Below, one piece after another: positions 7,731 to 13,087 of a DNA stretch of 64,000 bases. A program made the translations under genes and the position numbers. The notes beneath the pieces were generated by a model. That model ran no database searches. It was not told where the DNA came from and saw only the letters and a program-made list of their open reading frames with translations. This DNA comes from Myxococcota bacterium (GTDB lineage Bacteria > Myxococcota_A > UBA9160 > PR03): the NCBI GenBank assembly GCA_041611735.1, contig JBFIML010000001.1, positions 32,001 through 96,000 on the forward strand, given 5' to 3'. Each line of letters opens with the position of its first letter. Within the stretch, counting starts at the first letter, position 1.

Positions 7731-9125
7731 CTAGGCGCTGCCGCCGCGGATCGCCCGCACGAAGGCCTCGTAGAGCGCCTTGTGGATCGTCTTGCGGTCC
7801 GCGCGGCCGTACTTCTGGCGGAATGCCTTCAGCGGGATGATGCCCTTGGCCATGGTCCGGTGGCCGCCGCCCACCCCGAGGCCCTCCACCACCGCCCGCA
7901 CCACCTCCCCGGCCGCCCGCACGTAGCCGACGTTGCGCACCGAGAAGACGAGGTCCGCGTTCACGAAGCCCGCCGCGATGGCCCAGTCGGCGCCCTCCGC
8001 CTGGAGCGCCAGGTCCGCCACCTGGGGGATCACGTCCTCCCGCACGCGACCCAGCACCAGGATGTGGAGCGATTCCTGGACGGACGTTCGCGCCAGGGCG
8101 CGCCCCAGGGCCTTCAGGCCATCCACGGGCAGGGCCGGACGCTCGATCCGGCGCAGCAGGGCCGGGCTGTGGCTGGCGTGCAGGAACGCGAAGGCGTCGA
8201 TGTCCTGACGGCTGGTCTCGCGTCCCAGCAGCTGGGTGTCGCTCTTGATGGCGTACAGCAGCGCCGTGGCCAGGCGGGGTCCGATGTCCAGGTTCGCTGC
8301 CCGCAGGTATTCGGTCAGGATCGTGGCGGTGGCCCCGTAGGCCGGGCGGATGTCGCGCAGGACGGCATCGTAGCCGGTGCGCTCCGGGTGGTGATCGATC
8401 ACCACGTCCACCGAGCGGCAGCGGGCCGGCACGTTGTCCCCGAAGACGTTCGGCTGCACGTCCACCAGCGCGATGCCCTGGAAGCTGTCCAGCTCGATGG
8501 CGGCGAGCGTCTGCACGTCGATGCCCAGGGCCGCCACCATGGCCCGGTTCTCCGGGCGCTTCACCTCCCCGAACGAGACGAGGGGGGCCGTGGTGCGCTT
8601 GCGTCCCAACAGGGCGCGCAGGGCATAGCCACAGGCGATGCCGTCCGGATCCGGGTCCGGCTGCAGCAGGATCGCCACCTTGTCCCGCCCGCCGAGCAGC
8701 GTGCGGAGATCCACCACGCGGCGCAGGTTCGACAGATGGGAGAACTCCTGCTCCACGTCGTCGCGGATGAGGGAGCGCAGGGCTGCCCGTCGCAGGCACG
8801 GGTGCTCCGGCATCTCCGCCTGGGTGAGCTTGTCGGACAGGACCAGGATCGGTGCGTGGCTGGCGGCCTCGGCGATGGCCGAAACGGCGGCTCGCACGAA
8901 GGAGGCCTCCTCCGAAACCAGGGCGAAGCCGTCGCCCTCCTTCGGGTTGAGCTTGGCGATGGCCTCGGCGGCCAGGCCGCCCTGGAGAGCACGGAAGCCC
9001 GGGGGGCGCGCCCGCGATTCGTCCTCGCGGGGCACCCAGGTGAGCTCCTCGCTCTCTCCGGCGCCGATCCGGCCCCACAGCCGGGCGAGCTCCGCGCCGT
9101 CACACACGATGATCCGGCGTGCCAC
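7731..9125 (-). CDS. DHH/DHHA1-family phosphoesterase with N-terminal extra domain
   Basis: PDPDG, LVD, IDHH, SDT, FSVR, GGGH motifs. Confidence 0.88.
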   Translation of the reverse strand: MARRIIVCDGAELARLWGRIGAGESEELTWVPREDESRARPPGFRALQGGLAAEAIAKLNPKEGDGFALVSEEASFVRAAVSAIAEAASHAPILVLSDKLTQAEMPEHPCLRRAALRSLIRDDVEQEFSHLSNLRRVVDLRTLLGGRDKVAILLQPDPDPDGIACGYALRALLGRKRTTAPLVSFGEVKRPENRAMVAALGIDVQTLAAIELDSFQGIALVDVQPNVFGDNVPARCRSVDVVIDHHPERTGYDAVLRDIRPAYGATATILTEYLRAANLDIGPRLATALLYAIKSDTQLLGRETSRQDIDAFAFLHASHSPALLRRIERPALPVDGLKALGRALARTSVQESLHILVLGRVREDVIPQVADLALQAEGADWAIAAGFVNADLVFSVRNVGYVRAAGEVVRAVVEGLGVGGGHRTMAKGIIPLKAFRQKYGRADRKTIHKALYEAFVRAIRGGSA

Positions 9126-9255
9126 CGTTCTCTCCGGTGCCCTGCCGTGCTGCGCAGGGCGCGGACCGGCCGATTCTAGCGCGAGCGCCCCAGCGACCGT
9201 CCGCACCGGGCGCTCCGTTTCTTCCCTGCGGGGACGAGGCGCTAGGCTCCGCCTC

Positions 9256-10113
9256 GTGCAGCGCCTCTTCGTGGGAGACGTCCAGGGCTGTGCCGACGAG
9301 CTCGGCGAGCTGCTGGTCCGGGCACGCAACGCCTTCGGCCCGGATTTCGAGGTCTGGTTCGTGGGCGATCTCGTGAATCGGGGACCCGCCAGCCTGCGCG
9401 TCCTCGAGCAGGTGCGCGAGCTCTCCGATGCCGGGCGGGCGCACACCGTGCTCGGCAACCACGAGGTGGCCCTCCTCCAGGCTGCCCTCGGACTCCGGCA
9501 GCCGGATGCGGACGATACCTACCGGGAGGTGCTCGAGGATCGGGATGCGGAAGCCTGGCTGGACTGGCTGCGGAGGCGACCCCTGGCGATCCGGGGGCGT
9601 CTCGGCGAGACCCCCTTCGTGCTGGTGCACGCGGCCGTGGCGCCCGAGTGGAGCCTCGCCGACGTGTTGGCACACACGCGCCGCGTGGAGGTCCGCCTCG
9701 GCGGCGCGCTCGCGGAGGCGCGCCGCCTGCTGGCCGCCGACCCCGCCCGGGATCCGGACCGCGACGTGCTGGCCCGGCTCATCCAGTGCCGGAGCGTGGA
9801 CGGGCGCGGCGTCTGGTCGGCGGACGCGCCGGCCTCGCCGCGCGATGCGTGGCACCGACGCTGGCGCGAGCGCCGCCACGACTACGGCGTCGTCTACGGC
9901 CACTGGGCGCTCCAGGGGCTGCACGTGGCCCCGGGCCTGCGGGGACTCGACACGGGCTGCGTTCACCACGGTCGGGGAAGGGACGGGTTCCTCACCGCCT
10001 GGCTGCCGGAGCCGCAAGCGCGCCACCCCTTCGAGGTCCCCGACGATCGCTTCTGGCAGGTGCGTGCCCACCGTCGCTACTGGCCCTTTCGCGCCCCCCA
10101 AGAACGTGCTTGA
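9256..10113 (+). CDS. apaH: Symmetrical bis(5'-nucleosyl)-tetraphosphatase (ApaH-like)
   Basis: GDVQGC, GDLVNRGP, GNHE, VHA, GHWA, LDTGCV. Confidence 0.85.
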   Translation: MQRLFVGDVQGCADELGELLVRARNAFGPDFEVWFVGDLVNRGPASLRVLEQVRELSDAGRAHTVLGNHEVALLQAALGLRQPDADDTYREVLEDRDAEAWLDWLRRRPLAIRGRLGETPFVLVHAAVAPEWSLADVLAHTRRVEVRLGGALAEARRLLAADPARDPDRDVLARLIQCRSVDGRGVWSADAPASPRDAWHRRWRERRHDYGVVYGHWALQGLHVAPGLRGLDTGCVHHGRGRDGFLTAWLPEPQARHPFEVPDDRFWQVRAHRRYWPFRAPQERA

Positions 10114-10138
10114 ACTCGACCTCGCACCGATCTAGATT
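10110..10138 (+). promoter_or_regulatory. sigma70-type promoter
   Basis: TTGAAC (10110-10115), 17 nt, TAGATT (10133-10138); predicted TSS near G10145. Confidence 0.7.
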
Positions 10139-10144
10139 GACTTC

Positions 10145-10620
10145 GTACCCTGGACCCGGCGCAGGGGGAAGAGGTTCCGCCTCCGCCGACCGGACCGAGC
10201 GCCGGGTGACCCAGGTACGCGTCGGTGAGTCGGCGGGGGAGGGCGAGCCTGCGGGGTCGCGCCCGGAAGCCGGCCGATCAGCCGGAGTTCTGCGAGGCGC
10301 GAGGTCGCGGGCATCGGCGCGGGGGAACCTTCCCGGACCCGGGAGCTTCCACCCAAACGCCGGAGAGAGAGGGGAGTCTCCGACGACGCAGGCCGCGGCG
10401 AGGGCCCTGTCCGCGAACGCGCCAAACAGGATCGTTCGGGGGCGCACGGTCGCCCGGTCTTCGCAAGAGTTCCCCGAGGTTGCGCCGCGAGTCGGTGGCC
10501 GTTTGGATTCCGGTTCTCTCCGCGCAGCGGTTGTGCGGAGGGTCGGACGGTCGCTGCGACGCCGCTCCGGTACACGGCACGAGCCGGGCTTGCCCCGACG
10601 GAGGCCCGGGAAGGCCCCGC
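10145..10620 (+). ncRNA. Candidate large structured non-coding RNA (family not recognised)
   Basis: No credible ORF; upstream promoter; closing helices 10145-10162/10199-10218, 10219-10227/10312-10320 and 10328-10336/10606-10614; many internal hairpins with G-U pairs. Confidence 0.65.
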
Positions 10621-10655
10621 CGCCTCGACCCAGCCCGCCCGAGGGGTCTTGCCTC

Positions 10656-11594
10656 TCAGGGTGGCGCTCCGCGCTCTTCCAGGAGGCGACTCGCCTCCCG
10701 TCGCGCGCGAGCGTCCGCGTCCTGCGCGGCCACGTGCGCCACGGCCCCCGCCACAGGTTCGCTCCACACGCTCGGTGCGAGGCGAAGCGCCTGCCGTCGC
10801 AGCAGGCGGTCCGGGTGTTCGAGGGCTCGGAGCAACAGCTCGGCCAGGGCGGGATGGCTGGCACGGGCGGCTCCGGTCAGTACCGCGCGCAGCACGCCGG
10901 CCTCGGCAGCACCCTCTGCGTCCCGCAGCCCCGCCACCAGCGCGTCGAGGCCCTCGCGCCGGCTCGTCGCGAGCTGCGCCGAGACGGCGCGTGTCTCGGC
11001 GGGTCGGCCCGTGTCCAGAGCGTGTCGCGCCTGGAGCACGGCGGCTTCCGGGGAGAGGGGAGCCAGGGGCGCACGGCCTTCCAGCAGGGCGAGTCGCGCC
11101 TCGTCGCGCAGGCCGGCGTCGGGGCTGTCGAGCCAGGCGGAGTAGACGGGGACGAGACGCTCCGGAGACCCGGCGGCGGCGATCTCGCGCACGGCCGCCT
11201 CCCAGCGCTCCTCGGCGTCGGCATCGGACAGGACGAAGACCCCACGTGCCCCCTCCACCAGGACGTAGGGAGCGCGTGCTCCCCGCAGGAGCAGGAGGAC
11301 GCGCTGGCCGGGCTCCAGGGCCGGCGTCCGGGAAGGAGACCGCTTCACCGCGAAGCGCGCTTCCACGTCGCCGAGCACCGCGTGGCCCTCTCGCAGTCGA
11401 ATGCGTCCCGGCTCCACGGCGTCCACCGTGGCGAGGACGGCCCGGTCCGCCCGGGCGGCGCGTTCGTGCAGTGGCGCCGGGCCCGAGGGCAGGGGATGGA
11501 CGAACGCCTGGGCCCTCGCGGACGCGGCGCCGAGGGACGCTGCGAGCGCGACGGCGGCGGTCGACCACGAGCGCACGCGGCCTCGATGGCCCAT
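10656..11594 (-). CDS. Hypothetical exported protein with HEAT-like repeats
   Basis: Signal peptide ending A-x-A; C-terminal L..AL.HPD..LR..A helical repeats. Confidence 0.7.
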   Translation of the reverse strand: MGHRGRVRSWSTAAVALAASLGAASARAQAFVHPLPSGPAPLHERAARADRAVLATVDAVEPGRIRLREGHAVLGDVEARFAVKRSPSRTPALEPGQRVLLLLRGARAPYVLVEGARGVFVLSDADAEERWEAAVREIAAAGSPERLVPVYSAWLDSPDAGLRDEARLALLEGRAPLAPLSPEAAVLQARHALDTGRPAETRAVSAQLATSRREGLDALVAGLRDAEGAAEAGVLRAVLTGAARASHPALAELLLRALEHPDRLLRRQALRLAPSVWSEPVAGAVAHVAAQDADARARREASRLLEERGAPP

Positions 11595-11623: not shown

Positions 11624-13087
11624 ATGAGGTTGCGCCGGATCCGCACGGCGGCGCTCGGCCTGCTGGGGGCCTTCTCCACCTCGTGCGCCGGGCTGGGCTC
11701 GCTCGGCACGCTCACGCCCGAGCAGGAGGTGGCGGTCGGTGCCCGCGAGGCGGTCAGCGTCGAGCAGGAGATCGGCCTGGTCGCCGACCCGCAGCTGGTT
11801 GCGTACGTGGAGGCGATCGGCCGCCGCGTGGCCGCCCACTCGCCGCGGCGAGACATCACCTACCGCTTCCACGTGGCCGACATGGCCGAGCCGAATGCGT
11901 TTGCCCTCCCGGGCGGCTACATCTACGTGTCGCGGGGTCTTCTCGTGCTGGTGAACTCGGAGGCCGAGCTCGCCAACGTGCTCGGCCACGAAATTGCTCA
12001 CGTGACGGCGCGCCATCACGCCCAGCGCCACAGCCGCGCCACCAGCGTCGGTCTGCTCACGGTGCTGGGCACCGCCGCGGCCGCGATCCTGGGCGGCGCC
12101 GAAGCGGCGCAGCTGGCGGGCCAGATCGGACAGGTGGCGGGAGCCGGCCTGATCGCCTCCTATACGCGCGACCAGGAGCGCGAGTCGGACGAGCTTGGCC
12201 AGCAGATGGCCCTGCGGGCCGGCTACGACCCGGCGGCCATGGCGAACTTCCTGCGCACGCTGGAGGGCTGGGCGCGGCTCCAAGAGGGCGGCAACCGCAT
12301 GCCGAGCTTCCTGGACAGCCATCCCGCGACTCCCGAACGCATCGCGGCCACCGCGGCCCGGGCCGCCACCTTGACGCCGGGCGGAGCGCCGCGGGATCCG
12401 GACGGACGCGAGCGCGTGCTGGCGCACCTGGACGGGCTGGTGGTCGGCCCGAGCGTCGGCGAGGGCGTGCTGCGGGACGGCCTCTTCCTGCACCCGGACC
12501 TGAGCTTCGCGCTGCGTCCTCCCAGCGGCTGGCGCGTGCAGAACCAGAAGCGCGCCCTCGCCGCGGCGGCTCCGTCGGGCGATGCACTCTTCGTGCTCGA
12601 GCTCCAGGGCCCCGGCGACGACCCGCGTGCGGCCGCCGAGGCCTTCGCCCGCGCCAAGGGCGTCCGCTATGCGGAGTCCGGTCCGGCGCGGGGCACGCTG
12701 CTGCCCGGCTGGCGAGCGTTGGCGGTGGCGGAGTCCCAGCAGGGCCGCCTCGCGGTGGACCTCACCTGGATCGCCTGGCAGGGGCTCGTCTACCGGCTCT
12801 CCGGTGTGACCCCGGTCGCTGCCCAGGGACGCCATGCCGGGAGCTTCGAGACCGCCGCGCGCAGCTTCCGGCCCCTGTCGAGGGCCGAGCGGGCCGGCAT
12901 CCGGGAGCTGCGTCTGCGCCTGGTGACGGCCCGGGCCAACGAGTCCCTGGCTGCCCTGGCGGCGCGAGCGCAGGGCGTCTGGAAGCTCGAGGAGCTCGCG
13001 CTGGTGAACGGCCTCACGCCCGAAGCCCGCCTCGCAAGCGGCCTGCGCATCAAGGTGGCGAACGCCGAGCCATACGTCGGGCGCTAG
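11624..13087 (+). CDS. M48-family metalloprotease (putative lipoprotein) with C-terminal LysM-like domain
   Basis: PNAFALPGG, HEIAH, YTRDQERESD, SHP; C-terminal ESLAALA...LALVNGL. Confidence 0.9.
   Translation: MRLRRIRTAALGLLGAFSTSCAGLGSLGTLTPEQEVAVGAREAVSVEQEIGLVADPQLVAYVEAIGRRVAAHSPRRDITYRFHVADMAEPNAFALPGGYIYVSRGLLVLVNSEAELANVLGHEIAHVTARHHAQRHSRATSVGLLTVLGTAAAAILGGAEAAQLAGQIGQVAGAGLIASYTRDQERESDELGQQMALRAGYDPAAMANFLRTLEGWARLQEGGNRMPSFLDSHPATPERIAATAARAATLTPGGAPRDPDGRERVLAHLDGLVVGPSVGEGVLRDGLFLHPDLSFALRPPSGWRVQNQKRALAAAAPSGDALFVLELQGPGDDPRAAAEAFARAKGVRYAESGPARGTLLPGWRALAVAESQQGRLAVDLTWIAWQGLVYRLSGVTPVAAQGRHAGSFETAARSFRPLSRAERAGIRELRLRLVTARANESLAALAARAQGVWKLEELALVNGLTPEARLASGLRIKVANAEPYVGR

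Follow-up and report, generated by a model that had tools for sequence, protein, structure and literature searches.

Few classes of bacterial RNA reach this size and intricacy of fold, and those studied so far each did something unexpected: catalysis, membrane-bound particles or RNA cages. OLE, ROOL and GOLLD, all of them included in Rfam 15, are the described families closest in character to the RNA considered here. OLE has associated protein genes, ROOL and GOLLD are phage-linked, and ROOL, GOLLD and the transposon-linked guide RNAs belong to mobile elements or phages. The subject of this study is a non-coding gap in a 64,000-nucleotide stretch of a Myxococcota genome (contig JBFIML010000001.1 of assembly GCA_041611735.1, positions 32,001 to 96,000 of the forward strand), referred to as the window, in whose coordinates all positions are given. 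As the initial annotation of this DNA had outlined, the gap begins after the stop codon of an apaH-like gene (10113) and ends where a convergent open reading frame (ORF) of 312 amino acids stops (10656). The strings quoted in that annotation are all found at the positions it gave. We conclude, with a probability of roughly 85%, that the gap contains the gene of a large structured non-coding RNA that is transcribed independently and whose family is in no catalogue searched.

The family is apparently undescribed. What is new is a family without a detectable relative; its function may or may not be new. A stand-alone large structured RNA, possibly of an undescribed family, had been proposed from the window copy, and comparison with homologues supports that proposal while replacing most of the inner helices and adding two pseudoknots that had gone unseen. 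In the model that emerges, the RNA folds into two domains locked together by pseudoknots.

Comparative evidence for a structured RNA

Nine helices, including a pseudoknot of 12 bp, are supported by covariation, with about 88% of the cells in the pair tables able to pair as against 33-54% when the partner strands are slid. In the two domains together, compensatory changes affect 42 of the 61 pairs, and the observed values were not reached in any of 500 shuffles; compensated pairs, the signature of a structured non-coding RNA, stand above the controls, and conservation and covariation among relatives are strong. Across the family 284 cells hold G-U and 128 hold A-C, an excess that places the RNA on the + strand, the orientation already read from the G-U pairs of the window copy. 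Long shadow ORFs run across the gap. The distances between invariant anchors span all three classes modulo 3 and indels break every reading frame, which argues that the region is not coding.

Searches of the known RNA families, which the initial annotation had proposed, were empty. At the gathering score, Rfam 15 has no match in the 64-kb window and none in 19 homologous loci. At E-values up to 10 the region returns only microRNA and internal ribosome entry site noise of 14-18 bits against cut-offs of 49-98, and at E-values up to 5 seven loci return six unrelated matches, only one of which (21.7 bits) lies inside a copy of the RNA. Across the eight copies tested, there is no Rfam family with a consistent score, not even a weak one. 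Four conserved 15-mers were found in no paper's full text, and a keyword search of the literature found no such RNA in Myxococcota, only work on OLE, ROOL and GOLLD and general motif-discovery surveys, whose supplementary motif lists could in principle contain it.

The 5' domain and its pseudoknots

The conserved element exceeds the two blocks detected by BLAST (described below), as extending the alignment upstream (alignment A2) makes plain. The 5' domain is a long hairpin whose inner strand forms a 12-bp pseudoknot, PK1, with sequence downstream (Table 1). Its stem comprises helices S1 and S2, which the initial annotation had recognised as GTACCCTGG/ACCCGGCGC with GCGCCGGG/CCAGGTAC and which covary in 50 homologues; the apical hairpin that caps them has the consensus GAGA-CCGAGG-UCUC. 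In PK1 the strand GCUCCCGCCGAC within the hairpin pairs family-wide with GUCGGUGGGAGC downstream of S1, 91% of the cells of its 12 pairs being paired and nine pairs showing compensatory changes among the 50 homologues. For the 5' domain and PK1 together, 87.7% of 1412 cells pair, compared with 78.8% in shuffles and 33-49% with slid partners (A2), and compensatory changes occur in 24 of 29 pairs (132 cells), values that 0 of 500 shuffles reach. A second helix drawn at first between 10219-10227 and 10312-10320 had to be abandoned: it clashes with the covarying PK1 and P1, and relatives show nothing equivalent. Alternative hairpins can be formed by the segments GGGAAG, CUUCCC, GGGAGC and GCUUCC of the 5' block.

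The conserved 3' tail, (R)CCUCGG, complements the apical loop CCGAGG(U) exactly, and the two probably pair (PK2), which would tie the domains together. For this contact 95.1% of cells pair, against 91.3% in shuffles (none of 500 as high) and 27-56% with slid partners (A4), and compensatory changes are present in three of seven pairs (8 cells); support is modest because most of the columns do not vary. The word CCGAGG is present in both junction strands of the 3' domain too.

The 3' domain

Helices of the 3' domain were derived by eye, with RNAalifold and from pair tables on a MAFFT alignment of 50 sequences (A1). The domain is closed by P1 and P1b, followed by an invariant internal loop, P2, a three-way junction and two variable arms, with the consensus helices GGC-GCGGG/CCCGC-C-GCC (P1), GCGGAG/CUCCGC (P2), GGGAG/CUCCC (P3) and GGCG/CGCC (P4). 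Of 1586 cells, 88.5% pair; the figure falls to 81.3% in shuffles and to 42-54% when the partner strands are shifted by 1-3 columns. Changes on both sides are seen in 18 of 32 pairs (135 cells), and 0 of 500 shuffles reach any of the observed measures. P1b had been drawn beforehand as an outer helix (CCTTCCCGG, 10328-10336, with CCGGGAAGG, 10606-10614) and covaries: columns 29 and 460 hold U-A in 31, C-G in 11 and U-G in 6 of the 50 sequences. Columns 64 and 415 are equally telling (G-C 30, G-U 16, A-U 3), as are all five P3 pairs. Two inner helices of the earlier drawing, CCAAACG/CGTTTGG and CGGAGA/TCTCCG, clash with the conserved, covarying P2 (10360-10365/10565-10570) and did not survive the comparison. 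The remaining small hairpins of that drawing fall within the variable arms. Local pairings that RNAalifold placed on A1 (GGGA/UCCC, and CGGG...UUCC with the 3' block) were set aside because the double change from U-A to C-G at columns 29/460, found in 11 sequences, fits P1b but not these pairings; they may be real alternative states.

Between P1b and P2 lies an asymmetric internal loop in which ACCCGGGAGCUUCCA stands opposite GCCCCGNCGGAGG, and both hardly vary, leaving about 28 loop nucleotides (strands of 15 and 13) almost without change. In the first strand, A1 columns 36-48 are identical in 50 of 50 sequences and columns 49-50 in 49; in the second, GCCCCGACGGAGG, 10 of 13 columns are identical throughout, columns 441 and 442 are conserved in 92-96%, and column 446 is T or A. 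P2, P3 and P4 meet in a compact three-way junction, from which the P3 and P4 arms extend to widely varying lengths. The junction strands A-Y-CGAG and CGAG can form tandem G-A pairs, columns 70 and 260 being G-A in 39 of 50 sequences and columns 71 and 258 A-G in 38. Three-way junctions of the k-junction or kink-turn type contain tandem G-A pairs next to a helix, and the CGAG/CGAG strands resemble them, a likeness of local motif only. No gene for an L7Ae-family protein was found in the genome.

Promoter and extent of the RNA

A sigma-70-type promoter (TTG, a spacer of 16-18 nt and TAnnnT) is kept in nearly all of the 50 aligned loci. The TTG of its -35 box occurs in 48-49 of 50 (A2 columns 108-110), and its -10 box has an invariant A as second base and an invariant T as sixth (50 of 50). 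The last T of this box and the first G of S1 are separated by 6 nt in 34 loci, by 7 nt in 13, by 8 nt in two and by 9 nt in one; the window copy, in which G10145 comes 6 nt after the box, belongs to the first group. The TTGAAC-17-TAGATT promoter is thus where the initial annotation had put it, and a start of the RNA near G10145 is backed by promoter conservation in nearly all 50 loci. As judged from sequence, the RNA has the attributes of an independent transcription unit, namely a promoter of its own at a fixed distance from the first conserved helix. An automated promoter scan did not call the window promoter, which matched at 8 of 12 positions against a bar of 9. In the window, the -35 box (10110-10115) overlaps the apaH-like stop codon (10111-10113); apaH transcription therefore reads through the RNA promoter.

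The RNA is about 485 nt long here and about 320-550 nt between species; the 50 homologous stretches in the full-length alignment (A4), which take in about 9 nt of flank, measure 330-559 nt.

Table 1 Features of the RNA and of its neighbourhood in window coordinates
Feature	Position	Strand	Remarks
Whole RNA	10145-~10628	+	5' end inferred from promoter; 3' end reaches at least the conserved CCUCG tail (alignments A1, A2, A4)
-35 box TTGAAC	10110-10115	+	overlaps apaH-like stop codon TGA, 10111-10113
-10 box TAGATT	10133-10138	+	17-nt spacer from -35 box
5' domain hairpin	10145-10218	+	S1, S2, apical hairpin
S1	10145-10153 with 10211-10218	+	6/6 pairs compensated
S2	10155-10162 with 10199-10206	+	6/6 pairs compensated
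Apical hairpin	GGAA 10167-10170 with UUCC 10175-10178	+	loop GAGG; 3/5 pairs compensated
PK1	10179-10245	+	GCCUCCGCCGAC 10179-10190 (inside S1/S2 hairpin) with GUCGGCGG...GAGGGC 10229-10244 (downstream of S1)
Variable interdomain linker	10246-10315	+	absent or up to ~140 nt in relatives (A2, A4)
P1, 5' strand GGCGCGGGGG	10316-10325	+	3' partner CCCCGCCGCC 10615-10624
P1b	CCUUCCCGG 10328-10336 with CCGGGAAGG 10606-10614	+	
Invariant loop strand ACCCGGGAGCUUCCA	10337-10351	+	holds palindrome CCCGGG
P2, 5' strand CCGGAG	10360-10365	+	followed by junction strand AGAGAG
P3, 5' strand GGGAG	10372-10376	+	
Variable P3 arm	10377-10469	+	ACCGGUG motif in many relatives
P3, 3' strand UUCCC	10470-10474	+	
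Junction strand CGAG	10475-10478	+	
P4, 5' strand GUUG	10479-10482	+	weak in window copy
Variable P4 arm	10483-10559	+	
P4, 3' strand CGCC	10560-10563	+	followed by G10564
P2, 3' strand CUCCGG	10565-10570	+	
Loop strand GCCCCGACGGAGG, nearly invariant	10592-10604	+	A1 columns 440-452
3' tail GCCUCGA (consensus RCCUCGG)	10622-10628	+	candidate partner of 5'-domain hairpin loop 10170-10175 (PK2)
DHH-family gene	7734-9128	-	
apaH-like metallophosphoesterase gene	9256-10113	+	Pfam Metallophos, E = 4.9e-13
312-aa ORF, convergent	10656-11594	-	Pfam: zero matches
M48 peptidase gene	11624-13087	+	

Homologues and distribution

BLAST with the gap as query matched 29 of 41 genomes (that of the window, G000, and 40 relatives) in two blocks, corresponding to window positions 10319-10371 and 10585-10627, which lie about 180-340 nt apart in the other genomes. 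A 21-mer pattern taken from the first block was run over 185,579 species genomes, one for each species, and found 66 stretches: 53 with the family context and 13 chance matches in unrelated bacteria that lack the rest of the element. Almost all of the 53 come from metagenome-assembled genomes (MAGs) labelled Myxococcota, Deltaproteobacteria or Myxococcales. A few RNA-bearing MAGs are labelled Spirochaetales, Opitutales or Gemmatimonadota (L032, L058, L063, L069, L071, L074, L091, L043 and L093), labels that we do not trust because L032 and L071 are identical in sequence to loci of the window's own order. Among the chance matches, L033, L036, L038, L044, L046, L060, L064, L072 and others share the context TTYCNNGACCCGGGAGCTTCC(G/C), which resembles a conserved protein-coding motif and is unlike the RNA.

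The alignments comprise the 50 distinct copies that were left after removals. Rows were dropped where BLAST or the regular expression missed one block (L013, L019, L020, L042, L066 and L096), where a locus end cut the copy (L077 and L089) and where the regular expression matched falsely (L045), together with 15 exact duplicates and the 13 chance matches.

A covariance model of the 5' domain (R1) finds full-length matches in 76 of 151 genomes of the order, one in each except G093, which has two. The invariant 15-mer of the 3' domain is present in 55 of the 151, roughly 35-210 nt downstream of the R1 match on the same contig and strand, and adds four genomes, so that 80 of 151 carry the RNA. By family, R1 matches 13 of 16 genomes in f1, 29 of 35 in f8, 6 of 6 in f11, 8 of 14 in f4, 11 of 33 in f12, 4 of 35 in f10 and 0 of 3 in f9. 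Samples of the class and of the phylum gave 44 and 8 matches in 151 genomes each, every one of them within the window's order, and one family of another order gave 0 of 32; these counts come from samples of incomplete genomes under Infernal's stricter filters, and absence outside the order means not found in those searched.

The two full-length R1 matches of G093 lie on contigs C346 and C142, and G006 (C109) and G048 (C41) each have a second site of the invariant 15-mer; a duplication, a bin that mixes strains, or chance could account for these extra copies or sites. In viral contigs, 21 stretches hold the invariant 15-mer and none of the 21 has the family context. Six of these contigs (L114, L115, L120, L127, L129 and L131, from IMG/VR) contain tandem repeats of about 27 nt, GCCGACCYGGGAGCTTYCCCGCATCWC, in which the 15-mer arises by chance and which are unrelated to the RNA.

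Occurrence in sequencing runs

Six DNA runs hold at least half of the sampled words of the sequence. Four of them, being possibly the source sample, were left uncounted; the other two come from two studies, one a marine and one a sediment metagenome. Among the remaining runs, one sediment metatranscriptome (X7) holds 0.28 of the words, and X8-X14, with less than 0.1, say nothing on habitat. Transcripts of the gap were something the initial annotation had suggested looking for, and contigs of an RNA library do contain the sequence, strand, ends and level being beyond the reach of such contigs. In the sediment metatranscriptome, a 251-nt contig covers 10316-10566 with two differences. The same run yields many contigs that match only the two conserved blocks, with the middle skipped or replaced and depths of up to 478; by their sequence, these are relatives' copies. 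Several block-matching contigs continue upstream of P1 for over 120 nt, as would be expected if the 5' domain belongs to the same molecule. Most bins of the flanking genes are without contig cover in this run, which has no bearing on the expression of the flanks.

Genomic context

In 31 of 50 loci the apaH-like gene lies upstream of the RNA in the same orientation, and it is absent from 19; a divergent DHH gene is found upstream in 24; the 312-aa ORF follows the RNA in 10, convergent in every case; and the M48 gene follows in 4. None of these four neighbours is present in 13 loci. Because some loci are short, all of these counts are lower bounds. In eight examined loci without the window neighbours, the RNA sits beside unrelated housekeeping genes, including those for acyl-CoA synthetase-type enzymes, a histidine phosphatase, RNase PH, dehydrogenases, a glutaredoxin-rhodanese, MetH, EamA, GST, a GGDEF-EAL protein, enoyl-CoA hydratase and phosphoketolase. 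By ORF positions, the downstream gene is convergent in seven of these eight contexts, a same-strand gene following only in L041. Because the RNA has no constant companion gene and its downstream neighbour is usually convergent, it is neither a leader nor part of an operon. Closely related genomes have the locus in common.

Just downstream of the RNA, six loci (L003, L006, L016, L017, L039 and L053) carry a GC-rich repeated element, GCAAGCGCCGG...CCGGCGCGCGCAGCGAG..CGAGCGAAGT.CATCAG, which consists of a hairpin and a conserved tail. It occurs twice in tandem in L003 and L017, resembles a repetitive extragenic palindromic (REP) or miniature mobile element, and is missing from the window copy. 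In L047, about 3.7 kb upstream of the RNA copy, positions 748-839 match the c-di-GMP-II-GCG riboswitch model weakly, at 28.5 bits where the cut-off is 47.9.

Alternative explanations

Given its position, the RNA might be a cis-acting tail of the apaH-like mRNA (a structure in the 3' untranslated region, a terminator or a stabiliser) rather than a gene of its own, the more so as 31 of 50 loci have it directly behind apaH on the same strand, with no sign of a separate terminator between the two. We give this scarcely any weight, given the conserved promoter 6-7 nt before S1 in 47 of 50 loci, the lack of apaH in 19, in some of which the RNA adjoins unrelated genes, and a size and two pseudoknots that go far beyond what a terminator needs. 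Equally improbable is a 5' leader or riboswitch for a downstream gene: the complex fold, the invariant loops and the switch-like alternative hairpins of the 5' block would suit one, but a leader lies upstream of the same-strand gene that it controls, and here the downstream neighbour is convergent in all 10 loci that keep the 312-aa ORF and in seven of eight other contexts. The size class, the long-range pseudoknots and the single copy per genome also recall RNase P RNA or tmRNA, so that one of the universal RNAs (RNase P RNA, tmRNA, 6S or SRP) or another catalogued large RNA, in a divergent or rearranged form that escapes the models, has to be considered. All four universal RNAs, however, are encoded elsewhere in the genome and score above the cut-offs, the gap locus being matched by none of them: the genuine RNase P RNA on contig C26 (RF00010, 225.8 bits), tmRNA on C78 (RF00023, 135.6 bits), 6S RNA on C13 (RF00013, 53 bits) and SRP RNA (51.8 bits) at 106170-106273 of C2, where both RF00169 and RF01854 match. 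With no consistent Rfam score in eight copies, and with no pairing between the 5' and 3' ends of the kind that RNase P RNA and tmRNA have, we credit this explanation as little as the two before it. As for Y RNAs, no gene for their partner, the TROVE-domain protein Ro60 (PF05731), was found in G000, which is 95% complete.

Somewhat less far-fetched, yet still very unlikely, is an origin within a mobile element or phage that the RNA would serve. A patchy occurrence within the order (80 of 151 genomes) and several gene contexts might suggest as much; against it stand the single copy per genome, the retention of the same locus by closely related genomes, the housekeeping neighbours, the lack of any integrase, transposase or reverse transcriptase among 24 neighbouring proteins scanned, and the 0 of 21 viral stretches with family context. 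Least credible of all, to the point of being negligible, is that there is no real feature, only chance folding of a GC-rich spacer or a small protein gene. A folding-energy z-score of only -0.93 and the long shadow ORFs could be cited in its favour, but several families of the order conserve two domains and a promoter, compensation is seen in 42 of the 61 helix pairs, and indels break every frame.

Several points weigh against an independent gene for a structured RNA as we have described it. The predicted minimum free energy of a 476-nt stretch of the gap is -261.2 kcal/mol against a mean of -254.8 (standard deviation 6.9) for dinucleotide shuffles (z = -0.93; minus strand, z = -0.22), and 18 of 100 shuffles fold as well. 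This comparison, proposed by the initial annotation, does not go beyond chance, and the structure therefore rests wholly on comparative evidence. There, the covariation controls leave in the relatedness of the sequences, and helices picked by eye and with RNAalifold on the same MAFFT data favour the observed over the slid pairing. PK2 excludes the outer three pairs of P1, fitting 49-50 of 50 sequences where those pairs fit 35-50. Two mutually exclusive pairings of the loop strands, A (CGGG-A-GC/GCCCCG) and B (GCUUCC/GGAGGC), each fit 46-50 of 50 and are indistinguishable because the loop columns do not vary. The only terminator-like site found by a terminator scan (10484-10499) is within the P4 arm, away from the 3' end, and no U-tract terminator occurs in the sequences downstream of the 50 loci. 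The RNA evidence consists of assembled contigs of one run, which give no strand, ends or level and may derive from DNA in the library. No constant partner gene accompanies the RNA across the loci compared, and 71 of 151 sampled genomes of the order are without a match, which means that the RNA is dispensable or that the probes miss divergent forms.

Possible function and comparison with known RNAs

Conservation is focused on one loop and the junction strands while the arms are free in length, a pattern of binding to a fixed partner or of catalysis; by analogy, it is typical of partner-binding or catalytic RNAs and unlike base-pairing regulators or protein sponges. We envisage that the RNA would act in trans as a compact folded particle, in which the invariant internal loop would be the working site and the variable arms would be spacers. 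Among modes of action we tentatively favour a protein-binding scaffold of a ribonucleoprotein. Something outside the modes named here ranks next, although improbable in itself, followed by a ribozyme and a self-assembling RNA-only particle, which appear about equally unlikely, and lastly by a ligand or stress sensor, which seems more doubtful still.

More boldly, and rather speculatively, the family might represent a new class of RNA, large and either catalytic or self-assembling, in which the loop clamped by two pseudoknots would be the active site or an interface. If so, the palindromes CCCGGG and, in the P3 arm, ACCGGU would dock copies onto each other, giving an RNA-only particle like those of OLE, ROOL and GOLLD, but free-living and chromosomally inherited in marine and sediment Myxococcota. 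Whatever its role, the family offers about 50 diverse sequences, a defined promoter and a testable fold with two pseudoknots, and it shows that abundant RNAs are still hidden in uncultured lineages, where annotation pipelines take them for empty spacer.

Several described RNAs invite comparison. RNase P RNA is of similar size, has a single-copy chromosomal gene and a long-range pseudoknot, and likewise frames conserved unpaired nucleotides with variable arms; presumably, none of its conserved sequence blocks is present here. With tmRNA, 6S and SRP RNA the family shares stand-alone genes, strong promoters, apparent abundance and, probably, action in trans. From OLE, ROOL and GOLLD it differs in having no sequence or model similarity to them (the Rfam scan was empty) and in its host group, Myxococcota; it also lacks the associated protein genes of OLE and, over 21 viral-contig stretches, the phage link of ROOL and GOLLD. 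All are RNAs of several hundred nucleotides with many helices and pseudoknots, invariant stretches of loop, a narrow distribution among lineages and a function not evident from sequence. OLE, ROOL and GOLLD are described as forming homo-oligomers by cryo-EM (PMC12286853), and the conserved palindromes CCCGGG and ACCGGU could allow homo-oligomers of the present RNA as well.

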